Positions 4,147 to 37,544 of a stretch of 37,849 nucleotides of DNA are shown here, piece by piece. The stretch comes from an uncultured bacterium. Lineage in GTDB: Bacteria > Fidelibacterota > Marinisomatia > Marinisomatales > UBA1611. How positions within the stretch are numbered: position 1 is the stretch's first letter; each line of letters starts with the position of its first letter. Under the pieces are notes generated by a model. That model saw only the letters and a list, made by a program, of their open reading frames with translations. It did no database searches and was not told the origin of the DNA. A program made the translations under genes and the position numbers. The stretch lies in assembly GCA_964001155.1 (NCBI GenBank), contig CAXFCD010000052.1, positions 1-37,849 on the forward strand, in the 5' to 3' direction.

Positions 4147-5994
4147 TTATTTTACATAAATCAGTTTTTTGGAATCGATTATTTTATTATTCCAACTCAA
4201 TGTGCAAAAATAAATGCCGGAAGATACTTCTTGTCCGTCATCATTCATCCCATTCCAATCATAAGAGTAATATCCGGGATACAATTCGTCGTTCAGGATT
4301 GTTTTTACTTTTTGCCCAGTGAGGGACCAAATGACCAGTGCTACTTCTCTTTTATAGGATGTTACCACTAAAATATTGGTTTCATCCTTGAATGGGTTGG
4401 GATAGTTCTGGGTGAGATAAAAAGATTTTTGTAATTGATCTTCATTAGAGGTGAAAGATATAAGATTGGATTTATTTGATTCTTTCCAAAACCGGTCTGA
4501 AGTGGTTGAAAAGAAAAATTGGGTTTGCGATGTATCTAAGTTTGAAAAGTCTATGGGTATAACAAAAGAATCTTTCGAAAAATGGATATCAAAAATATTT
4601 GCAGACTCATTAGAAGCAGTTGGGCTTGTGGATTGGTAGGTTATGATCCAATTCGGTTCCTCCGTTTCTTTTGGGTAAACTTCCAATTGATATTCATTTT
4701 CTTCGCCGGATGACAAAACAATGGTGGGAGGGTCAATTGATCCTAGAGTGCCAATCGGATTTGGTTTTATTTTTGATTTCTCGATAAAAAATGTTTCCCC
4801 TGCTGTGGTGAAATAATTATGATCCCGCCAAGTTGCATAGCTGAAAAATTGGAAACCATCAACCCATCCTAATTCCCGGATGGCACTGACAATACTGTTG
4901 TGGTTATTCCAAACATTATTATCCGACAAAATATAGGATCCCGGTCCAACTGTGAAAGGCCGCCCAGATTCGATTCCCGGTTGAATAAATAATTCCCAAC
5001 AGTTTGGACAATCATTGGAAAGCATGTCTATAAATCCTTCAGAAGTCGTCCAATGATAACTCATGGGCATTATGTGATCTAAATAACCTTCATTATACCA
5101 AAGCGCTCCATCTTGGTAAACAGTGCCATACCCTTGCCACCCGGACCAATTGTATTTTCCTAAAACTGCAGCGCTCAACTTTACATGGGGCTTCACCGCT
5201 TGGATTGAATCATGGAGTGTGCTCACAAATTCTGTCACGCTCCATCGCCACCAGTCTTCCCAAGAACTGAATCCATTTGGGATACCGGCAGAATAGGGAT
5301 GTTCATAATCGTATAAATATCGTCCTGATGGATTTGAAGTCAATTCTTCAATTTCGTGTTGGGTTATGAATCCATCAATTCTATTCAATTGCTCTTGATG
5401 AGACGGTGAGTTTCGTTGAGAATTTGTGTGCTCATTCCAGCGGACATAATCTAAATGCAACCCATCAATATCATAATTTCGAACAATTTCCATAGCTACT
5501 TGCAAGGTGTAATTCCTAACTGCATCTAATCCGGGAGACAAAGATCGGTATGAGGCCATCGGTATTCCATTTTGATCGCGACAAATCCATTCCGGGTGCT
5601 CAGCTGCAGGGGCACCGTTATGTGTGCTTGAGGTTTGGAATACATTAAACCAGGCATGAAGCTCCAATCCACGGGCATGGGCTTCTTCAATGGCTAAAGC
5701 CAAAGGGTCATAACCGGGATATTGATATCCGGCATAATAACCCCAAGGTTCATAAGATGATTGGTAATAAGCAGTTCCACCCTGGCGAACCTGAAAAATA
5801 ACTGCATTCATATTGGCGTCTACATGGTCATCCATAATTTTTGCCACTCGATTCATATTTTGCACTGCTGGCTCATATCGGTTTATGTGATCCCAGGTGA
5901 TGACCCAGGTCGATCTAAATTCAGTATTTGATGGGGAAGCCGAGGAAAGGGTTAGTCCAAAGATAATAAAAATAAACGTGTATTTATAAAGCAT
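4147..5994 (-). CDS. Glycosyl hydrolase-like family 10 (GHL10/DUF187, YngK-like) TIM-barrel protein with a T9SS C-terminal sorting domain
   Basis: Signal peptide present. RSTWVITWDHI...NAVIFQVRQGGTAYYQSSYEPWG...YDPLALAIEEAHARGLELHAWFNVF...IDGLHLDYVRW matches the GHL10 pattern. The C-terminus has a NYPNPF... tail. Confidence 0.75.
   Translation of the reverse strand: MLYKYTFIFIIFGLTLSSASPSNTEFRSTWVITWDHINRYEPAVQNMNRVAKIMDDHVDANMNAVIFQVRQGGTAYYQSSYEPWGYYAGYQYPGYDPLALAIEEAHARGLELHAWFNVFQTSSTHNGAPAAEHPEWICRDQNGIPMASYRSLSPGLDAVRNYTLQVAMEIVRNYDIDGLHLDYVRWNEHTNSQRNSPSHQEQLNRIDGFITQHEIEELTSNPSGRYLYDYEHPYSAGIPNGFSSWEDWWRWSVTEFVSTLHDSIQAVKPHVKLSAAVLGKYNWSGWQGYGTVYQDGALWYNEGYLDHIMPMSYHWTTSEGFIDMLSNDCPNCWELFIQPGIESGRPFTVGPGSYILSDNNVWNNHNSIVSAIRELGWVDGFQFFSYATWRDHNYFTTAGETFFIEKSKIKPNPIGTLGSIDPPTIVLSSGEENEYQLEVYPKETEEPNWIITYQSTSPTASNESANIFDIHFSKDSFVIPIDFSNLDTSQTQFFFSTTSDRFWKESNKSNLISFTSNEDQLQKSFYLTQNYPNPFKDETNILVVTSYKREVALVIWSLTGQKVKTILNDELYPGYYSYDWNGMNDDGQEVSSGIYFCTLSWNNKIIDSKKLIYVK
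4150..4416 (-). other. T9SS (Por) type-A-like C-terminal sorting domain of the GHL10 protein
   Basis: LTQNYPNPFKDETNILV...VALVIWSLTGQKV...YSYDWNGMNDDGQEVSSGIYFCTL...KKLIYVK. Confidence 0.7.
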
Positions 5995-7482: not shown

Positions 7483-8031
7483 TTAATTAAAAAAGAATTG
7501 GCAAATATAAACCGCACTCAAAACACCCACAGCATCAGCAATCAAGCCAGCGGCAAGTGCATGGCGGGTTTTTATGATTCCAACAGATCCAAAATAAACA
7601 GCAAGCACATAAAAAGTTGTCTCAGTTGAGCCAAACATAGTGGCGCCAATTTTGGCTATGATGGAATCAGGACCGTGTTGGTTAATCAAGTCAGTTAATA
7701 GACCTAAAGATCCACTTCCTGATAGAGGTCGCATAAGCGCTAACGGAAGGTTTTCCGGTGGAAAACCAATCAAAGTTAACACAGGGGAGAAGAAATTCAG
7801 TAATAAGTCTAATGCGCCTGAGGCTCGGAACATCCCAATAGCTACCAAAATAGCCACCAAATAAGGAATGATTCTAACTGCGATAGTAAAACCATCCTTT
7901 GCACCTTCCACAAATGTTTCATAGACTTTTATCTTTTTAAAAACAAGACCATAAAATGGAATGCCAACTAATAGGAAAGGAATAATGTATTTTGAAAATT
8001 CGTTAATACTGCCAACAATAGATTCAATCAT
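7483..8031 (-). CDS. spmB: SpmB-like nucleoside-recognition (Gate) domain membrane protein
   Basis: 182 aa hydrophobic protein with MRPLSGSGSLGL and TETTFYVLAVYFG blocks. It overlaps the upstream spmA-like gene by 4 nt. Confidence 0.75.
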   Translation of the reverse strand: MIESIVGSINEFSKYIIPFLLVGIPFYGLVFKKIKVYETFVEGAKDGFTIAVRIIPYLVAILVAIGMFRASGALDLLLNFFSPVLTLIGFPPENLPLALMRPLSGSGSLGLLTDLINQHGPDSIIAKIGATMFGSTETTFYVLAVYFGSVGIIKTRHALAAGLIADAVGVLSAVYICQFFFN

Positions 8032-8624
8032 TTTTGGTCTCCGTAGATAATATCAAACCGTTTTCTTTTTTCTAAAAATTTTACTGCTAGAACAGCAGCA
8101 ATTGTGGACATACTAGTAGCGATGATTGTTGTTATAAAAATTTGGCTTGAATATGATCCCATCAGTGCAACTACCGTTGCCGGCAAAATGAGTTGAACGC
8201 TGGATGTATTGAGAGCCAGAAACATAGCCATGGCATTTGTGGCTGTATCTTTTTTTGGATTTAGTTCCTGTAGCTCCTCCATTGCTTTAAGCCCAAGAGG
8301 TGTTGCTGCATTTCCTAGACCAAGGATATTAGCAGCCATATTCAATACAATGGATCCAATGGCAGGATGGTCCGCCGGAACATCCGGGAATAATCGAATT
8401 GTAATTGGACGTAATCCTTTGGCAATGATTCGAATAAGTCCGGATTCTTCTGCAATTTTCATCACACCCAACCACATTGCCATGATGCCAATGAGTCCGA
8501 TTGCCAGATTGACAGCAACTTTCGCCATATCAATTGCTGCTTCCGTTACGGCATCAATATTCCCGGTAAATGCTCCGACCACAACACCGATAAACATCAT
8601 TCCAAACCAAATATAATTCAGCAT
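8028..8624 (-). CDS. spmA: SpmA-like nucleoside-recognition (Gate) domain membrane protein
   Basis: 198 aa starting MLNYIWFGMMFIGVVVG, with the ANILGLGNAATPLGLKAMEEL block typical of SpmA/Gate-domain proteins. It is paired with the SpmB-like gene. Confidence 0.75.
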   Translation of the reverse strand: MLNYIWFGMMFIGVVVGAFTGNIDAVTEAAIDMAKVAVNLAIGLIGIMAMWLGVMKIAEESGLIRIIAKGLRPITIRLFPDVPADHPAIGSIVLNMAANILGLGNAATPLGLKAMEELQELNPKKDTATNAMAMFLALNTSSVQLILPATVVALMGSYSSQIFITTIIATSMSTIAAVLAVKFLEKRKRFDIIYGDQK

Positions 8625-13758: not shown

Positions 13759-14949
13759 TTAATTTGCCAGATCATATCTATGAATAGTATTATCTAATTG
13801 GATAAAAAAGGTATCCGAATTATCAATTTTTGAAAATTTCACATTTTTATACGATTTGTTGGAAATTTCATGAGTAGTGAGAGTCTCCTTTAAAAAATTA
13901 TATTGGAGAAGTTTTATATTGTCGTAAAATAATCCATTTGGGGATGGTGATAGTGATTTTGATGTGAGAATTAATAACAAATTATCATAATTCATACACT
14001 CCATAGGGAATACTTCATCATCAAATTTTATTTTAATCGGATCCATTATTTTTGATGGATCATAAATTGTTACACCATCCTTATAAATAAGAGCTAACTG
14101 CTTGTTTATCCAGATGACTTTTCGAGGCATTACTGCCAAAGGCATAGACATAATTTTATTCAAATTATTAAGGTCGAATAAAGTTAAATGAGGAATTGGA
14201 TTTATTCTTTCGGTGGGATTGGTTGTCCCAACAACAGAAACTATATTTTTTGGTGAAATGGATGTGAAATATGGTTGAACCATGTCAAAAGTGACGCTTG
14301 GTTTAGATTCTAATGATTCCTTTAATTGAAAAAATGTTACATTATTTCTGGAATTTAGTTTTGCTGTTTTCATTCCTAAGAAATATAGTTGGCTATTGTG
14401 AGATTGGCTGAGGATGACCTTCTCTGTAGTCCAGGGACTTTCACCGAAAAGATTAAATTTGCCTATCAATTCTCCATTCACATTAAAGACTGAATATGAT
14501 TGTGATTCAGCCCATAGAATAAATATTTGTTCATTAAAAATGATGATATTTGGAATCCCTGAATCATAAGGAATTTCGATTTGCCAAGGGGAATTTCTAA
14601 TTGCAAAATTTGAAATGGGTTGGAATGTTAAAATAGCCTGCTCTTTATTTTTTGGAATTATTAACGAAACAACCATTAATAGATCTGGTAATTTGTTTGC
14701 TAATACCTTTATAATCCTTCCTTTGGAGATTTCATAGATTGAATTACCATTTTTGAAAACATGTTGTTCATTATAGCTTAGAATAGCTGAATCACTTACA
14801 GATAGCACTGTTGAAGAATTTTGAAGTGTATATGATTGAACTAAAAGAGCATTGTCCTGACTGCTGATAAAACTAGGCAAAAAAAATAAAAGAAAAAGGG
14901 TGGTGGGGAATTTCATTTTATGTAGGCTCACGTTATTCTTTCCGTGCAT
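13759..14949 (-). CDS. Hypothetical secreted protein (no family recognised); the true start may be the MKF... codon at 14916
   Basis: A long ORF with no competing ORF. It has a hydrophobic N-terminal signal (MKFPTTLFLLFFLPSFISSQ) and lies 3 nt upstream of the M23 gene on the same strand. It is visibly more AT-rich than its neighbours. Confidence 0.5.
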   Translation of the reverse strand: MHGKNNVSLHKMKFPTTLFLLFFLPSFISSQDNALLVQSYTLQNSSTVLSVSDSAILSYNEQHVFKNGNSIYEISKGRIIKVLANKLPDLLMVVSLIIPKNKEQAILTFQPISNFAIRNSPWQIEIPYDSGIPNIIIFNEQIFILWAESQSYSVFNVNGELIGKFNLFGESPWTTEKVILSQSHNSQLYFLGMKTAKLNSRNNVTFFQLKESLESKPSVTFDMVQPYFTSISPKNIVSVVGTTNPTERINPIPHLTLFDLNNLNKIMSMPLAVMPRKVIWINKQLALIYKDGVTIYDPSKIMDPIKIKFDDEVFPMECMNYDNLLLILTSKSLSPSPNGLFYDNIKLLQYNFLKETLTTHEISNKSYKNVKFSKIDNSDTFFIQLDNTIHRYDLAN

Positions 14950-19578: not shown

Positions 19579-22500
19579 TTGAAAATCACACAATACAACA
19601 ATTCCAAATCAATTTTATATTTAGTTGGATTAGTGTTAATACTTTCAAATCCAGTATATGCATTTTTACCATTAAATAAAAAAAATAATGATCAAGAACC
19701 ACCGCGAAAAGATTGGACAAATACTCAATATACGAATTATTACAAATGGCGGGAGAATACTCTTCAGAGACAAATGGATGAGGAAAATGACGATCAAATT
19801 CTTAGAAGACAGAAAGCTATACTTAATGGCAACAAGATAACGTCGGAAATTTGGAATTACGGTAGTATCTCAAGCCCAGGAAACCGAACCACTGATATTG
19901 TATGGGAAAGTTTGGGATATGGGTATGAATTTGGGCCTTTTATTTGTGCAGAGGTGGAAGTCGAGCCTCAAAGTCACTTAGATGCTTATATTAAAACTGA
20001 CGAGAATGGAAATCCGGTTACCAATGAAAATGGAGATACTGTTTGGGTAGCAAGAGTGATTAGTGATGGTTTGGTTTCCTTAGGAGGTGAAGTTTCACCT
20101 GATGGAAAGGATATTTGGGGCTGGCAACCTCTCGCTTATAATTCCGAAAATGTACCTTATGCAGATACTGAGAGCAATTATATCCCAACCTCAAACGATT
20201 TTGATCGGGATGGTGACGGTAAACCAGACAGTTGGCCGGAAGGATGGTACAATGAAATCCTAAAAGAGTTTAAGTGGCCAGGCGCATTACGCCAAGGTGC
20301 ATCCAACTCTGATATGGAATCCTTTTTTGTTGTAGACGATCGCACGAATAAAGAATTTGAATATTACCCTTTTCCAGAAGATTCCACGCGAAAAGGATTA
20401 GGGATTGAAATTGAATGCCGTTATTACCAATGGTCAAATCCACTGGCCGAAGATATTATATTCCTCATTTATAAGGTAACAAATAAAAGTCAAAAAGACT
20501 TGAATAAAGTCCTTTTCGGTATGTGGGGGGATCCCCACATTGGTGGTCCATCTAATTGGCAGGATGATTTATCATATTTTGACCGTGATATTAACATGGT
20601 TTATTGCTGGGATGAAGATGGTCACAGCGATATTGCCGGACGTGAACCGGGATACTTCGGTTATAAATTTCTTGAAAGTCCTGGTGATCCTTATGATGGA
20701 TTAGATAATGACTCTGATGGAATGGTCGACGAAAGCAGGAGTGATGGCATAGACAATGACGGTGATTGGGATCCGGATAAACATGATGTTGGAGTAGATG
20801 GTATACCAAATACAGGTGATACCGGTGAAGGAGACGGTGCCCCAACTGCTGGTGATCAATACGACATTAGAGAACCGGGTGAACCAAACTTTGAATGGAC
20901 TGATTTAGATGAAGCAGATATGGTGGGTCTAACAGGATTTGCATCACCGGCTTTCGGTGGAAATAACTCTATTTCTAATGATCATTATGTTTTCGAAAAC
21001 TTTTTAACACCAGGCGTTTTTGATTCTGCCAATGCAAACTCAGCAGGGGATTATATTTTTATTTACAGTTCAGGACCAATTGATCTTCCTGCGGGTGAAA
21101 CTCGCCGATTTTCCATTGCATTGTTAGTTGGACAAAATTATGAAGACTTAACACTGAATGCGGTGACTGCACAAAGTATTTATGAGCGGAATTATCAATT
21201 TGCAAAACCACCTGAAAAACCAAATGTTACCGTTGTCCCTGGTGATGAGAAAGTCACACTTTACTGGGATGATATTGCAGAATCTTCCATTGATCCAATT
21301 TCAGAGAAAAATGATTTTGAAGGCTATGTTATTTACCGAAGTACAGATCCCCAATTTTTAGATCAGCAAACAATAACTGATGCCTATGGATCTAACTTTT
21401 TGTTTACTCCGCTCGAGCAGGTTGGAGGAGCACCAGCAAAATTTGATCTGATAAATGACTACAGCGGTTTGAGCAGTATACCATACACGGGTCATGGAAT
21501 TCCATATAATTTGGGAAGCAATACCGGCATCCAACATTCTTTTGTGGACTCAAATAATGTAATTAATGGACAAGTCTATTATTACACTGTAGTTTCCTAT
21601 GATCATGGAGATGACAGTCTTCAGATCGCACCTGCTGAATGCTCAAAACTGATCACTTTGAATCCGGAATCAAATGAGTTATTTCTCGATGTAAATACAG
21701 TCCAAATTATACCAAGAGTGCCTGCAGCAGGTTATACGGAAGGTAGCTTAACCAGCGCAGGGATATTTCATGAAGAAGGTATTGGAACAGGAAATGTGAG
21801 AATTGAGATTATTGATCCAATGAAAATAGAAGACAGTGATACCTTCCGCGTTACATTTAAAGAATCACCAACAAGATATTCGGTTGAGGATACAAAACCA
21901 GTTGATGAAATTTTTATAGCTAATAGTGGCAAATTCATTGGACTGACATTTAGGAATATTGTAAAAGAATCCTTTAATTTGAAAAGCATGGATGGCACTG
22001 TTGTTTATATTGATAGTGTCGACTATGAGTTGGATTCAGATTATGGTCGAGTTCGCGCCATTCCTGATTCTTCCGGAGGCGGTTTAGAAGATGGCGTACA
22101 ATATCGCGTAACCTATACTTATTTATCAATTAAAGACAGTGAAATGTTAAATAATGAAGAATCAAATCCTGTTTTTGATGGATTGAAAATTTTTATAGAA
22201 GATCAACCATTAGATATTGATGAGAGTAAAACAGGGTGGAATTTATATAGTCCAACAAATTATACTACAGTCGTAGGAGTATTTTCACAAGGAGGAAACG
22301 CATTTCCAGCGGATTATGAAGTTCGGTTTTCATCATCAATTGTTGATACAGGTTCTTTTGCTGGAATATTGACACCCTTTGAAATTTATAAAACCACCAT
22401 GGGTATGATCCCTGAAAAGCAACGGTTTGCAATCATAAAGAAGCAACCCAATGAAAGTAATGATACATGGGATAGTCATGATGAAATTGTTTTATTTGAA

Positions 22501-23001
22501 GGTGAAGGATTCAGTTCACCTACTTGGATGATAAAATTTCTACAACCACCGGCGGATACACCCGTTATTCCTACTGAAGGTGATATTTATCAAATTGCTA
22601 CAACTCGTCCCTTCACTACTGATGATATTTTTACATTTGTTACAACAGCATCAAAAATTGATGAAAATCAAGGAATTAATGATTTAGAAAAAATCTCTGT
22701 TGTTCCTAATCCTTATGTCGTAACAAATACCCTCGAAAGATTAGATAGGCAAAATCCAAGGGACAGAGGTCCCCGGCGAGTATATTTTAACCATTTACCT
22801 GCTGAATGTACTATACGGATTTATACGATTACAGGTGAATTGGTAAAATCATTAGTGCACAGTTCAACAATTGATGATGGCAAAGAATACTGGGATCTCA
22901 CAACAAATGACAATTTTCCAATTGCATATGGAGTTTATATTTTTCATGTTGATGCAGGAGAAATAGGTGAGAAAATCGGGCGATTTGCAGTTATTAAATA
23001 A
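19579..23001 (+). CDS. Large (1140 aa) secreted protein of unknown family with a thrombospondin-type-3-like Ca-binding Asp cluster, an FN3-like domain and a divergent T9SS/FlgD-Ig-like C-terminal domain
   Basis: TTG start 24 nt after the receptor stop. Signal peptide present. DGLDNDSDGMVDESRSDGIDNDGDWDPDKHDVGVDGIPNTGDTGEGDG cluster. FN3-like PEKPNVTVVPGDEKVTLYWDD...GYVIYRS. The C-terminus is VVPNPYVV...IRIYTITGELV...GVYIFHV...RFAVIK. Confidence 0.7.
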   Translation: MKITQYNNSKSILYLVGLVLILSNPVYAFLPLNKKNNDQEPPRKDWTNTQYTNYYKWRENTLQRQMDEENDDQILRRQKAILNGNKITSEIWNYGSISSPGNRTTDIVWESLGYGYEFGPFICAEVEVEPQSHLDAYIKTDENGNPVTNENGDTVWVARVISDGLVSLGGEVSPDGKDIWGWQPLAYNSENVPYADTESNYIPTSNDFDRDGDGKPDSWPEGWYNEILKEFKWPGALRQGASNSDMESFFVVDDRTNKEFEYYPFPEDSTRKGLGIEIECRYYQWSNPLAEDIIFLIYKVTNKSQKDLNKVLFGMWGDPHIGGPSNWQDDLSYFDRDINMVYCWDEDGHSDIAGREPGYFGYKFLESPGDPYDGLDNDSDGMVDESRSDGIDNDGDWDPDKHDVGVDGIPNTGDTGEGDGAPTAGDQYDIREPGEPNFEWTDLDEADMVGLTGFASPAFGGNNSISNDHYVFENFLTPGVFDSANANSAGDYIFIYSSGPIDLPAGETRRFSIALLVGQNYEDLTLNAVTAQSIYERNYQFAKPPEKPNVTVVPGDEKVTLYWDDIAESSIDPISEKNDFEGYVIYRSTDPQFLDQQTITDAYGSNFLFTPLEQVGGAPAKFDLINDYSGLSSIPYTGHGIPYNLGSNTGIQHSFVDSNNVINGQVYYYTVVSYDHGDDSLQIAPAECSKLITLNPESNELFLDVNTVQIIPRVPAAGYTEGSLTSAGIFHEEGIGTGNVRIEIIDPMKIEDSDTFRVTFKESPTRYSVEDTKPVDEIFIANSGKFIGLTFRNIVKESFNLKSMDGTVVYIDSVDYELDSDYGRVRAIPDSSGGGLEDGVQYRVTYTYLSIKDSEMLNNEESNPVFDGLKIFIEDQPLDIDESKTGWNLYSPTNYTTVVGVFSQGGNAFPADYEVRFSSSIVDTGSFAGILTPFEIYKTTMGMIPEKQRFAIIKKQPNESNDTWDSHDEIVLFEGEGFSSPTWMIKFLQPPADTPVIPTEGDIYQIATTRPFTTDDIFTFVTTASKIDENQGINDLEKISVVPNPYVVTNTLERLDRQNPRDRGPRRVYFNHLPAECTIRIYTITGELVKSLVHSSTIDDGKEYWDLTTNDNFPIAYGVYIFHVDAGEIGEKIGRFAVIK
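22693..22998 (+). other. Divergent T9SS-like C-terminal domain of the 1140-aa protein
   Basis: ISVVPNPYVV, then an insertion (TNTLERLDRQNPRDRGPRR), then VYFNHLPAECTIRIYTITGELVKSL...YWDLTTNDNFPIAYGVYIFHVDAG...GRFAVIK. It has the same strand pattern as the other five tails but with an extra charged insert. Confidence 0.45.
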
Positions 23002-34064: not shown

Positions 34065-34706
34065 ATGAAAACAAATTATCATTTACCTTGGGATAAGGAA
34101 GAGATTGCCAACACAATCACTCACGGATTTGGCGTGATTGCCAGTTCTATTGGTCTCGGTTTTTTATTGTATTTCGCCATTATGAAAGGGACCATTTGGG
34201 AACAGGTCAGTTTTGGCATTTTTGGATCAACCATGTTGGTTGTTTTTCTCGCCTCCACAATATATCATTCAATTCGACACCCAAGATTGAAACGGATATT
34301 TCAAACGATTGATCAGTCTGCGATATTTTTGCTTATTGCAGGATCTTATGCACCGTTTTGTTTAGTCAGTATGCGAGGCGTTTGGGGTTGGTCTATTTTA
34401 ATTGCAGTTTGGCTACTTGCGATCGGTGGCATTACGCTCAAACTTTTTTATCGAGATAAAGTCGTTAAACCATTTGTGATTTTGTATGTAGCTATGGGTT
34501 GGTTATGCATTATTGCCATAAAAGAAATGTTGGAGAAAATTCCTGAATTTTCATTACTCTTTATTGTCATCGGTGGCGGCTTTTACATGACAGGAATTAT
34601 TTTTTATCTTTGGGAAAGATTACCCTATAGCCATGCTATCTGGCATCTGTTTGTTCTGGGTGGATGTGCCAGTCATTATGTGGCTGTAATTGATCTCATT
34701 TTATGA
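34065..34706 (+). CDS. Hemolysin-III / PAQR family membrane protein
   Basis: 213 aa with 7 TM segments. EEIANTITHGFG, STIYHS, DQSAIFLLIAGSYAP and HAIWHLFVLGG are the conserved PAQR His/Asp motifs. Confidence 0.85.
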   Translation: MKTNYHLPWDKEEIANTITHGFGVIASSIGLGFLLYFAIMKGTIWEQVSFGIFGSTMLVVFLASTIYHSIRHPRLKRIFQTIDQSAIFLLIAGSYAPFCLVSMRGVWGWSILIAVWLLAIGGITLKLFYRDKVVKPFVILYVAMGWLCIIAIKEMLEKIPEFSLLFIVIGGGFYMTGIIFYLWERLPYSHAIWHLFVLGGCASHYVAVIDLIL

Positions 34707-35203
34707 CAAACTTCATTCTTGCAGGATTAATCATGGCACCTTTATTCGAAAAATTTCCAGAGATTGGAAAACCTGCTCCCCACTTTTCATTAGAAGACCA
34801 AGATGGGAAAACCCATTCACTGGAGGAGTATAAAGGGAAGAAACTTGTGGTTTATTTTTTCCCAAAAGCAGACACACCAGGATGAGTGAAACAAGCATGC
34901 GGATTCCGGGATGAATCTCAAAAGTATGAAGAATTAAATATCGTTGTTTTGGGGATTAGTTATGATTCAAAAGAATCACTGAAATCCTTTCGAGAAAAAT
35001 ATAGAATCCCATTTAATTTTCTTTCAGATTCAGAAAAAGTGGTTGGGAAAAAATATGGAGTTAATAAATTTCTTTTCCCTTCGAGAAAAACATTTTTAAT
35101 TGATGAAGATGGGATACTTATTCGAATATTTCAAGACGTAAATTTGAATACACATCCTGAAGATGTTGTGAAAGCATTTAATGAAGTTTTAATTGGAGAA
35201 TAA
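34703..35203 (+). CDS. bcp: Selenocysteine-containing thiol peroxidase (Bcp/PrxQ-type peroxiredoxin); in-frame TGA at 34883-34885 read as Sec
   Basis: The two track ORFs (34703-34885 and 34886-35203) are in the same frame, separated only by TGA. Joined, they read VVYFFPKADTPG-U-VKQACGFRD, the Bcp active site (PKDxTPGCTxxACxFRD) with TGA exactly at the peroxidatic Cys. The rest (GISYDS...FREKYRIPFNFLSD...YGV...RKTFLIDEDG) is a complete thioredoxin-fold peroxiredoxin. Confidence 0.8.
34896..34928 (+). promoter_or_regulatory. Candidate bacterial SECIS hairpin for the bcp UGA
   Basis: It starts 10 nt after the UGA. Lower stem CAUGC/GUAUG (34896-34900 / 34924-34928, one G-U). Upper stem GGAUUC/GAAUCU (34901-34906 / 34913-34918, one G-U). 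3' bulge CAAAA. Apical loop CGGGAU. Confidence 0.5.
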
Positions 35204-35204
35204 C

Positions 35205-35435
35205 ATGAAAGTTTCTATTGAATATTGCGCCATGTGAAACTACCTGCCAAGAGCTTCCGGTCTGGAAGAAGAACTCAAATCAAAATTCCCGGGAATTGAC
35301 ACAAAACTCATTTCAAGTGGTGGCGGTGTTTATGAAGTGACACTGGATGGAAATCTCATTTTTTCCAAAAAAGCCTTAGATCGATTTCCGGAAGCTGGTG
35401 AAATAGAAAAATTGATCAAGGACAATTCCAACTGA
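35205..35435 (+). CDS. selW: SelW-like (Rdx family, SelW/SelT/SelH) selenoprotein, 76 aa, with a CxxU redox motif; not present in the ORF track
   Basis: The ATG at 35205 lies 1 nt after the bcp stop and has a GGAGA Shine-Dalgarno. Translation: MKVSIEYCAM-U-NYLPRASGLEEELKSKFPGIDTKLISSGGGVYEVTLDGNLIFSKKALDRFPEAGEIEKLIKDNSN. The TGA at 35235-35237 sits in the CxxU position. IEYCxxU, GGGxxEV, DGxLIxSK and RFPE are the Rdx-family hallmarks. Confidence 0.85.
35251..35276 (+). promoter_or_regulatory. Candidate bacterial SECIS hairpin for the selW-like UGA
   Basis: It starts 13 nt after the UGA. Lower stem GAG/CUC (35251-35253 / 35274-35276). Upper stem CUUCC/GGAAG (35254-35258 / 35264-35268). 3' bulge AAGAA. 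Apical loop GGUCU. Confidence 0.55.
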
Positions 35436-35436
35436 T

Positions 35437-36198
35437 TTGATTTTTAGCGTTCATTATAAAGGTCAGGATTACACACTAGATTCTGACCGAGGGATTGATT
35501 TGTCAATTCCAAATAATTTTGATGGAAAAAATCCGTCTTTTTATGGTGCAAAGTCTCCAGAAATAAAACCGGTTTTATCCGGTGATTTTATTGGTGATGT
35601 AAATAAGGGTGGGAGTTGTAATGTACCGGTAGCCACAGTTGATATTCATTGTTCCGGTACACACACCGAGTGCGAAGGTCATATCAACAATTCAGGATTG
35701 AGAATATCTGATGTTTGTCCGAGAGGATTTCTATTTTCTCAAATTATTTCAATTGAACCAGTTTTAAAATCTGATACAAATGAATCATATCATGTAGATT
35801 GTGAAAATGAATTAGTGATTTCATCCGAGTCAATTCGTAATAATCTTCATGAGGATATTGAAGCACTCATTCTTCGTACGTTGCCAAACACGGATGAAAA
35901 ATTGAGTCGAAATTATGATGAAAACCCAGCCCCTTTTTTGACAAATGATGCGATTGATTTTATATCAAAAAAAGGGATCCAACATGTATTGGTGGATGTG
36001 CCTTCAATTGATAGAGCCAATGATGTTGGAAAGTTAGGAAATCATCATCGATTTTTTGAATATGGGAAAACAATTTCCGAATTACTTTATATTCCAAACT
36101 CTATTCAAGATGGACTTGGATTTCTTCAAATCCAAATCCCCAATTGGGGATTAGATGCTGCCCCAAGTCGCCCCATTTTTTATTCTGTTATATTATAG
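35437..36198 (+). CDS. Putative cyclase / kynurenine-formamidase-family metal hydrolase (divergent)
   Basis: TTG start 1 nt after the selW-like stop. DIHCSGTHTECEGH resembles the cyclase-family HxGTHxDxPxH metal motif. HVLVDVPSIDRAN and HHRFFEYG resemble the downstream conserved blocks. Confidence 0.55.
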   Translation: MIFSVHYKGQDYTLDSDRGIDLSIPNNFDGKNPSFYGAKSPEIKPVLSGDFIGDVNKGGSCNVPVATVDIHCSGTHTECEGHINNSGLRISDVCPRGFLFSQIISIEPVLKSDTNESYHVDCENELVISSESIRNNLHEDIEALILRTLPNTDEKLSRNYDENPAPFLTNDAIDFISKKGIQHVLVDVPSIDRANDVGKLGNHHRFFEYGKTISELLYIPNSIQDGLGFLQIQIPNWGLDAAPSRPIFYSVIL

Positions 36199-36266: not shown

Positions 36267-37544
36267 ATGAGCGAGCAAGTAAAAAGTATAATCACATGTG
36301 ATCTTGATGGAAAAGTGGAGACATTTAGCGATGGTGCAGAGAGTCTTTTTGGATATACTCAAGAAGAAGTGATCGCTAAAATGAGAGTGAGTGATTTCAG
36401 CAATGGACAGGTTGTATTGGGCCACGTTGTGGGCTGGCTGGCTGAAGCAGTAAAAAATGGCGCTTGGGAAGGCAATACGGTATTTTTGCACAAGGACGGT
36501 AGTGAATTACCTTGCCATATCAAAATTACACCCACAAAAGGAAAAGATGGCGTGCATATTGGCTATTGCGGTGTAACCACACCATTGCAAAATAAGACCG
36601 CGGACGAAGTCCGGCCAAAGATCAGTCTGATGACTAAGATCTTTACCTGGTTGGTAATTATGCGTTTACCCTTTTTAACTGCTACATTTGTCCCCATTTT
36701 TGTTGGTGCGGCTGTAGCAAAACTGGCTGGATTTCCTGTGGATTGGGGTTGGTTGGGTTTAACTCTGTTGGGTGGATCTCTTTTGCATATTGGAACCAAT
36801 ACGGCCAACGATTATTTTGATCACACCAGTGGTACAGATGAAGCAAATTATAATTATATGGTTCCATTCTCAGGTGGCAGCCGCAGTATTCAAATGGGCC
36901 TCATTACAGCAAAAGGAATGCTAACAGTGGCTATTGTGTCCTTTGTACTGAGTGCGGTTGTAGGTATTCCACTTATACAAAAAGCAGGGATACCAGTCTT
37001 GTGGTTGGGCTTGATTGGTTTTCTGTCCGGTTTATTCTATACAGCCCCACCTTTTCGTTTTGCATCTAGGAAAGGATTAGGTGAATTACTTATTGGACTC
37101 AATTTTGGCCCACTAATGGTTGCAGGCAGTGCTCTTATACAAACAGGAAAATTATTGCCGGACGCATTCCTAGCTGGAATTCCTATTGGTCTTCTGGTAG
37201 CTGCGATCGTATATGTAAACGAATTTCCGGATCATGATGGTGATAAAGCTACAGGGAAGAATACCTTGATTGTTGTCTTCGGCCCTGAAAAGGCTAGGAT
37301 TGGTTATGTCTTGTTGGTAGCAGGTGCCTTTATCAGTATCGTGGTCATGGCTTTGAATGGAACTTTTCCCATGCTGACCATGATCGCACTTGTGGCATCT
37401 TATTTTGGTGTGAGAGCAATCCAAATACTTTATAGATACTATGACGACCGCCTGTTGCAACCTGCAAATGCCGGTACGATCAATATGCACTTTATTACAG
37501 GAGTTCTATTTTGCATTGGAATCTGGCTGGGAGCACCTGTTTAA
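36267..37544 (+). CDS. N-terminal PAS-like domain fused to a UbiA-family (MenA-like) polyprenyltransferase
   Basis: Residues 1-~110 (ITCDLDGKVETFSDGAESLFGYTQEEVIAKM...WEGNTVFLHKDGSELPCHIKITPTKGKDGVHIGYCGV) look like a PAS fold. The remainder is polytopic, with the two UbiA Asp-rich motifs NTANDYFDHTSGTD and YVNEFPDHDGDKATGKNTL. Confidence 0.8.
   Translation: MSEQVKSIITCDLDGKVETFSDGAESLFGYTQEEVIAKMRVSDFSNGQVVLGHVVGWLAEAVKNGAWEGNTVFLHKDGSELPCHIKITPTKGKDGVHIGYCGVTTPLQNKTADEVRPKISLMTKIFTWLVIMRLPFLTATFVPIFVGAAVAKLAGFPVDWGWLGLTLLGGSLLHIGTNTANDYFDHTSGTDEANYNYMVPFSGGSRSIQMGLITAKGMLTVAIVSFVLSAVVGIPLIQKAGIPVLWLGLIGFLSGLFYTAPPFRFASRKGLGELLIGLNFGPLMVAGSALIQTGKLLPDAFLAGIPIGLLVAAIVYVNEFPDHDGDKATGKNTLIVVFGPEKARIGYVLLVAGAFISIVVMALNGTFPMLTMIALVASYFGVRAIQILYRYYDDRLLQPANAGTINMHFITGVLFCIGIWLGAPV

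Follow-up and report, generated by a model that had tools for sequence, protein, structure and literature searches.

A probable selenocysteine-encoding peroxiredoxin gene of the Bcp/PrxQ type, paired with a SelW-like gene, in a Marinimicrobia (SAR406) clade

Near the end of a 37,849-nucleotide contig from an uncultured bacterium (CAXFCD010000052.1 of assembly GCA_964001155.1, analysed over its full length and called here the window), two open reading frames (ORFs) of the forward strand, 34703-34885 (60 codons) and 34886-35203 (105 codons), stand in the same frame and are parted only by the TGA at 34883-34885. Is this a peroxiredoxin (Prx) gene broken by a stop codon, a misread base, the trace of an altered genetic code, or a gene in which UGA is read as an amino acid and, if so, as which one? 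An earlier note, made from the sequence alone, took the TGA to be a selenocysteine (Sec) codon sitting exactly on the peroxidatic cysteine. Our analysis arrives at the same answer with high confidence: the two ORFs very probably form one intact gene, prx, predicted to encode a genuine Sec-containing peroxiredoxin of the Bcp/PrxQ type (atypical 2-Cys). Neither the family nor the gene pair is new: Sec-containing peroxiredoxins and their pairing with a SelW-like gene were described from marine metagenomes in 2005-2008.

The translation across the junction is YFFPKADTPG-[TGA]-VKQACGFRD, and the joined product has 166 aa from the ATG at 34703, or 156 aa from an alternative ATG at 34733, which is perhaps the true start and has an AGGA 7 nt upstream. 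With Cys placed at the TGA, this product aligns with positions 1-122 of the 124-position profile of the Pfam AhpC-TSA family (PF00578) at E = 3e-37; its score of 127.7 bits is well above the gathering score (26), and the full-domain match is obtained only when both ORFs are joined. The separate halves match profile positions 1-40 and 43-122; therefore, the TGA falls into the gap at the active site, and each half holds only part of the domain. The sole listed start of the second ORF is a GTG directly after the TGA. The active-site motif reads P54-K-A-D-T58-P-G-U61, followed by VKQA-C66. The best PDB sequence matches are Bcp proteins, first 3drn (Sulfolobus Bcp1; E = 4e-29, residues 20-162), then 5enu, 2ywn and 2cx3, and in these alignments the TGA column is the peroxidatic position (TPGC in 5enu) and C66 is the resolving position. 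C66 is invariant in our alignment A1 and in 85 of 85 related loci (contexts ...ACG/ACS...). The claims of the earlier note on the joined frame, on the incomplete halves with the internal GTG start, on the placement of the TGA at the peroxidatic Cys and on a resolving Cys retained five residues later (UxxxxC) were all confirmed by these comparisons. R128, in the motif SRKTFLID, is conserved in at least 90% of A1 and aligned with ARITFVID of 3drn; we take it to be the catalytic Arg of peroxiredoxins. The best two NCBIfam matches, scored with Cys for Sec, fall below their cut-offs (Bcp NF006960, 127.1 vs 140; PrxQ NF053650, 118.2 vs 260), as does the match to the PrxU model NF040737 (47.3 bits vs 270). 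The predicted product is Bcp-like and not a certified Bcp equivalog.

The codon found at the peroxidatic column of relatives carries much of the argument. A scan of one genome per GTDB species yielded 80 prx loci, and the codon census was taken over 85 loci: TGA occupies the column in 31, TGC in 37 and TGT in 17, and nothing else occurs there. No prx of these loci has a further stop or a frameshift; the earlier note had named frameshifts or random stops among orthologues as the pattern that would speak against a Sec codon. Each of the 24 nearest species representatives (L001-L024) has TGA, down to ~55% protein identity; nearly all of them carry the label Candidatus Marinimicrobia or Neomarinimicrobiota (SAR406). 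The closest of them is only 75-81% identical to the window, showing that the window's own species is not in the GTDB representative collection. Cys is found at this column in more distant Marinimicrobia and in other phyla.

In the neighbour-joining tree, the TGA-type genes of Marinimicrobia form one large clade with a single nested Cys-type gene, L030 (Neomarinimicrobiota MED648; codon at 5527), which is sister to L017/L019. It has TGC in the motif TPPC, not TPGU, lacks the SIS, Rdx and cyclase neighbourhood of the clade, and looks like a Sec-to-Cys reversion. TGA-type prx genes also occur outside the main clade, in L044 (10193-10243), in L056 from a Blastocatellia metagenome-assembled genome (2232-2282) and in the P0113 lineage (L088-L090), which is present in 161 blocks of the contig collection; none of these has an adjacent Rdx gene. 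Selenoproteins are recognized in the field by the repeated exchange of Sec and Cys at a single column (PMC1088965), and the window prx shows the corresponding Sec/Cys pair of bacterial selenoproteins, an in-frame UGA aligned with the Cys of its homologs.

The gene that follows prx tells the same story more clearly. The earlier note had called it a second selenoprotein, and it is indeed an Rdx/SelW-like gene that begins 1 nt past the prx stop and encodes MKVSIEYCAM-[TGA]-NYLPRASG..., with the TGA in its CxxU motif. With Cys at the TGA, its product matches Pfam Rdx (PF10262) at E = 4e-22 (78.6 vs 22.6 bits), and it also passes the cut-offs of the SelT/SelW/SelH (seleno)protein model NF041051 (104.2 vs 88) and of TIGR02174 (66.3 vs 34.2). 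In 24 of 24 TGA-type Marinimicrobia species loci, an Rdx gene lies 352-377 nt after the prx TGA, and the CxxU column is TGA in all 29 loci that have the gene, window included. Its candidate Sec insertion sequence (SECIS), a hairpin downstream of the UGA, pairs in 95.3% of cells compared with 27-60% when the arms are slid, and in two of its pairs both bases have changed in a compensatory manner (U-A to C-G; C-G to U-A). Most relatives have GCUUCC-AGUUU-GGAAGC, and the loop residues G26 and U27 are invariant. The loop in the window closely resembles that of the E. coli fdhF SECIS, whose apical loop is GGUC. The loop G stands at column 26 after the U of UGA in the window's prx as well as in its Rdx gene. 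The SECIS of the Rdx gene is clearer than that of prx and provides good indirect evidence for SelB-mediated UGA decoding in this organism.

A hairpin after the prx TGA, also noticed earlier, is present: its stem pairs GGAUUC (34901-34906) with GAAUCU (34913-34918) over 6 bp and encloses the loop CGGGAU (34907-34912), and a lower stem of 34896-34900 with 34924-34928 is possible. It is convincing only through its conservation, and several observations on it, together with those on the Sec machinery, weigh against reading the TGA as Sec. Its energy of -7.8 kcal/mol is no better than that of shuffled sequence (z = +0.27), and the same holds for single-sequence folds after both TGAs of the window. 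Its variation among relatives is mostly wobble (G-U/G-C, A-U/G-U), it overlaps the conserved coding sequence GFRDES, and it is not uniform, as alternative hairpins fit some lineages better. Neither a gathering scan of the whole window nor a permissive scan of 34600-35500 gave a SECIS or other meaningful Rfam match above chance level. As for the machinery, no selA, selB, selD or tRNA-Sec gene was found in the window or the related loci (~1.1 Mb), a search space in which the source genome is represented by the window. ARAGORN detected no tRNA-Sec in the window or in 46 loci, and tblastn of the related loci with approximate E. coli SelA, SelB and SelD sequences as probes returned only generic GTPase-domain matches outside Marinimicrobia. 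Finally, a genome survey of 2016 lists three SAR406 single-cell genomes as 'orphan SelD' (PMC5029168, Table 1), a class defined by SelD without other Sec-trait genes or selenoprotein genes (PMC5029168).

Since the energy of a single sequence is uninformative, comparative tests were used instead. Among 28 ungapped TGA-type sequences, the prx hairpin register pairs in 88.8% of cells, compared with 16-55% when the 3' arm is slid; in Cys-type genes, the same register pairs in 47% of cells (n = 54), or in 62% when only Cys-type Marinimicrobia are considered. As the region encodes the conserved GFRDES, synonymous recoding was chosen as the null, and the mean z was -0.95 in TGA-type against +0.06 in Cys-type genes (Mann-Whitney p ~1e-4, a value overstated by the relatedness of the sequences). 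The loop residue G26 is invariant. The lineages that depart from the usual hairpin have others in its place. In L017 (10169-10219) and L019 (7623-7673), a Phe-to-Leu codon change destroys it, and a new hairpin, CCUGC-GGUCU-GCGGG, stands 5-6 nt nearer the UGA with the same loop as the Rdx SECIS of the window. A hairpin UUGCGG-GUU-CCGCGA, with a GUU triloop, fits several lineages and P0113 better, and in L056 the corresponding place after the TGA is taken by an unrelated stem, UCGCUC/GAGCGA. Every version of the prx hairpin has a G in its small apical loop, and such a G is required by the description of bacterial SECIS elements (PMC1088965). We consider the prx SECIS to be moderately supported as a real element.

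Two other foldings were tried and rejected. A hairpin model pairing columns 15-20 with 24-29 around the loop GUU (model B) paired in 76% of cells, with no covariation and only 3 bp in the window itself; it was rejected for the window's clade but is a better fit for L015, L018, L021-23, L044 and P0113. The RNAalifold consensus of prx was weak (-1.9 kcal/mol) and involved the UGA itself.

Among the rival explanations, the one that survives best is that the UGA is read through with a main residue other than Sec, either Trp or Cys from a near-cognate tRNA or Cys through the Sec pathway, in an organism lacking selenium or part of the machinery. The machinery missing from the searched loci and the SAR406 single-cell genomes with SelD and no other Sec-trait gene (PMC5029168) fit this reading, which we nevertheless consider improbable. 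Two unrelated genes have a hairpin of SECIS type whose loop G is equally far from the UGA, and the one in Rdx covaries, which favours SelB-dependent decoding. Moreover, the long retention of a TGA that is one substitution away from a Cys codon implies an advantage of Sec, and single-cell genomes are incomplete. With two selenoprotein genes present in each of 24 Marinimicrobia species, the 'orphan SelD' class of SAR406 would seem to reflect incomplete genomes or a different subclade.

A genome-wide reassignment of TGA to Trp (code 4) or Gly (code 25) might be read from the databases, where 110 of the 120 best homologs (P0001-P0120) have Trp at the peroxidatic column (TPGW). These residues probably derive from the use of code 4 by gene callers on such contigs: P0113 and P0015, which were checked at the DNA level (L088-L093), have TGA at this codon, and translating their genes with code 4 gives exactly the protein in the database. 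This suggests that selenoprotein genes are systematically miscalled under code 4 when they lie on short, low-GC marine contigs, in line with the remark of the earlier note that Sec-containing Prx proteins, known from marine surveys (PMC1088965, PMC2398784), are mishandled by gene callers. The database calls P0007, P0017 and P0043 also continue beyond the prx stop and read the following gene out of frame. We give the reassignment very little credit, since the window uses the standard genetic code. In its other 27 genes, every Trp is encoded by TGG and no TGA occurs in frame, and TGA is the stop codon of five of the 29 genes, including HlyIII and Rdx on either side of prx, with short or no extension upon read-through. 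No further same-frame ORF pair joined by a TGA exists in the window, only off-frame artefacts inside known genes. In-frame TGA is thus confined to two columns where homologs have a redox Cys, and from what is established for peroxiredoxins, the catalytic residue would be lost if Trp or Gly took its place.

A decaying gene with a nonsense mutation in its active-site Cys codon would require a single substitution (TGC or TGT to TGA), and gene callers do split prx into two ORFs; the chance that prx is such a pseudogene is, in our view, negligible, since both of its halves are under purifying selection (median dN/dS of 0.13 for the part before the TGA and 0.16 for the part after it; dS > 1). The TGA persists in 24 species representatives despite saturation at synonymous sites, the related loci are not copies of one assembly sequence (55-81% identity) and are free of other stops and frameshifts, and the neighbouring Rdx gene repeats the pattern at its own redox column. 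A TGC or TGT turned into TGA by faulty sequencing or assembly, a concern raised in the earlier note for which only the one-base distance between the codons speaks, deserves just as little weight, as both TGAs are retained in three independent Joint Genome Institute metagenome assemblies (100%, 98.8% and 98.7% identical), two of which are strain variants with 8-9 substitutions, and the TGA recurs in dozens of diverged loci.

Returning to prx as a Sec-encoding gene, its expression and activity may be outlined as follows. SelB carrying Sec-tRNA(Sec) would bind the small hairpin that starts ~16-18 nt after the UGA and deliver Sec to this codon, so that one protein of 156-166 aa would be made where translation would otherwise stop. 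From the chemistry of Bcp enzymes, we infer that the selenolate of U61, activated by P54, T58 and R128, would attack the hydroperoxide and become a selenenic acid, which C66, on the same helix, would resolve into an intramolecular selenenylsulfide. A thioredoxin-type reductant would presumably recycle the enzyme. The positions of all these elements are given in Table 1.

Table 1. Positions of the prx and Rdx genes, their key codons and hairpins, and the flanking genes in the window.
Feature	Position	Strand	Basis
Bcp/PrxQ-type peroxiredoxin gene (prx)	34703..35203	+	Read through one in-frame TGA
P54 codon of prx active site	34862-34864	+	PxxxTxxU motif
T58 codon of prx active site	34874-34876	+	PxxxTxxU motif
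UGA codon, predicted Sec U61, peroxidatic residue	34883..34885	+	PxxxTxxU motif
TGC codon for C66, resolving Cys (U-x4-C)	34898..34900	+	Invariant in alignment A1
Candidate SECIS hairpin of prx	34901..34918	+	Minimum free energy fold and comparative pairing
AGA codon for R128, conserved active-site Arg, motif SRKTFLID	35084..35086	+	Alignment
Rdx/SelW-like selenoprotein gene, 76 codons, CxxU motif	35205..35435	+	PF10262, NF041051
C8 codon of Rdx CxxU motif	35226-35228	+	Motif C8-A-M-U11
UGA codon, predicted Sec U11 of CxxU	35235..35237	+	TGA column in relatives
SECIS hairpin of Rdx gene, CUUCC-GGUCU-GGAAG	35254..35268	+	Pairing, compensatory changes
HlyIII-family membrane protein gene, upstream (context only)	34065..34706	+	PF03006, E = 6e-38
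Putative cyclase-family gene, downstream (context only)	35437..36198	+	PF04199

The Prx selenoprotein family with the TxxU motif (COG1225/PF00578) has been defined by TGA/Cys pairs together with a hairpin bearing an apical-loop G (PMC1088965, PMC2398784, PMC13188914). The Sargasso Sea study counted 43 Sec-Prx (COG1225, Bcp group, TxxU) and 48 SelW-like genes, its two most abundant families (PMC1088965), and the Global Ocean Sampling study found 253 Sec-Prx (pfam00578, TxxU) and 427 SelW-like sequences, among them 'ten Prx/SelW sequences' in which the genes are adjacent and come from closely related organisms (PMC2398784). The genome survey of 2016 recorded 91 Sec-Prx in 78 organisms (PMC5029168), and a review of 2026 places the PxxxTxxU Prx among the established prokaryotic selenoproteins (PMC13188914). 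The window prx shares with these marine sequences (PMC1088965, PMC2398784) the Pfam and COG families, the Sec position in TxxU (here TPGU), the habitat and the adjacency of a SelW-like gene, and the Prx/SelW reads of marine metagenomes and the pair in the window are most likely of the same lineage. Nothing of substance sets them apart; the marine reads came without a taxon, whereas the window pair can be assigned to Marinimicrobia, to a clade that comprises at least 24 species representatives. Our literature searches found no assignment of selenoproteins to Marinimicrobia/SAR406.

Compared with Cys-type Bcp/PrxQ proteins (E. coli Bcp, Bcp1 of Sulfolobus solfataricus in 3drn and the Burkholderia protein in 5enu), the window protein has the same fold, the PxxxTxxC motif, the spacing of peroxidatic and resolving residues (Cp-x4-Cr) and the Arg. 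It differs in that its peroxidatic residue is encoded by UGA, predicted to be Sec, and that its clade has a conserved hydrophobic N-terminal leader. PrxU of Eubacterium acidaminophilum (NF040737) likewise has Sec at the peroxidatic position, but it belongs to another Prx subfamily, has ~230 aa and comes from an anaerobic Firmicute; Sohling et al. 2001, which concerns PrxU, is the reference given for Sec-containing Prx in the 2026 review (PMC13188914). No difference was found between the Rdx gene of the window and bacterial SelW-like/Rdx selenoproteins (PF10262, TIGR02174, NF041051) in family scores, in the N-terminal CxxU or in the SECIS after the UGA.

The genomic context separates the pair from its surroundings. 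The prx-rdx pair is invariant in the clade, while its flanks vary (HlyIII upstream; cyclase and PAS-UbiA downstream). The TGA stop of HlyIII overlaps the prx ATG at 34703 (ATGA), and HlyIII precedes prx in only some of the related loci; the cyclase gene starts 1 nt past the Rdx stop and follows Rdx in most, not all, of them. A terminator scan found no terminator-like site between prx, rdx and the cyclase start, and given the 1-nt spacer and the lack of a terminator in between, prx and rdx are probably co-transcribed. In the scan as a whole, 10 terminator-like sites were found against 3.0 expected, all within the genes that flank the pair; promoter-like sites were no more frequent than chance predicts, and the scan yielded no positive evidence on where the operon begins or ends.

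These features raise the idea that prx(U)-rdx(U) is a dedicated peroxide-detoxification module of two selenoproteins in pelagic Marinimicrobia, in which the SelW-like CxxU protein would be the specific reductant or partner of the Sec-Prx. We regard this as a tentative proposal that is more doubtful than probable. It is supported by the invariance of the pair in 24 species while the flanks change, by the minimal spacer, by the fact that both genes are always in the Sec form and by the absence of the neighbourhood around the Cys revertant L030. On the other side, L044, L056 and P0113 have a TGA-type prx without an adjacent Rdx gene, and the Rdx protein has no counterpart of the possible export leader of prx.

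The leader in question is a hydrophobic N-terminal extension ahead of the Bcp core that is conserved across the clade, e.g., MKKILTIILLKFSLFGA (window 34703-34760; upstream regions of L001-L024). In L014, L018 and L020, no start other than the upstream ATG is available. The leader of the window, MTNFILAGLIM, has no basic residue. The leader could be a signal peptide or a membrane anchor, and the product could then be an exported Sec-peroxiredoxin.

Further along the window, the product of the gene at 36267-37544 joins a PAS domain at residues 7-101 to a prenyltransferase of the UbiA family at residues 141-395, and this fusion is kept in most related loci (74-92% identity). In relatives (L081), a UbiA gene sits among menaquinone-biosynthesis genes; therefore, the fusion in the window may be a sensor-fused MenA. 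At the other end, the gene at 46-2727 encodes 893 aa that combine an N-terminal part similar to the beta-N-acetylhexosaminidase NagZ with a C-terminal part similar to beta-lactamases and PBP4B, and the region 4147-31365 is rich in peptidoglycan-recycling genes (NamZ, amidases, LD-carboxypeptidase and PBP4). The window also encodes a GH18 glycoside hydrolase, a TonB-dependent receptor and proteins with tails of the type IX secretion system (T9SS); T9SS sorting domains in neighbouring genes are consistent with a bacterium of the Fibrobacterota-Chlorobiota-Bacteroidota (FCB) group. The large ORFs 19579-23001 (1140 aa) and 13759-14949 (396 aa) have no Pfam match, and ORF 8028-8624 (198 aa) has no NCBIfam match.

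The novelty is low and comes down to three points: the Prx/SelW pair can now be attributed to a clade of Marinimicrobia (SAR406), its SECIS differs from lineage to lineage, and most of the closest database homologs have Trp at the catalytic residue, which in the two that were checked was traced to a code-4 TGA. In practical terms, two real genes are split or dropped by standard gene callers, and profiles or function predictions built on the Trp-miscalled entries inherit an active site that looks inactive. For the family, a marine Prx/SelW pair that was long known and taxonomically unassigned is now placed in Marinimicrobia, an abundant phylum of the dark ocean. For the organisms, the finding implies that the peroxide defence of this Marinimicrobia group depends on selenium, without introducing a new kind of system. 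If the two genes were to form a dedicated module, this would be the first defined function for bacterial SelW-like proteins, and the 'orphan SelD' of SAR406 would be part of a complete Sec-decoding trait in a very abundant deep-ocean phylum.

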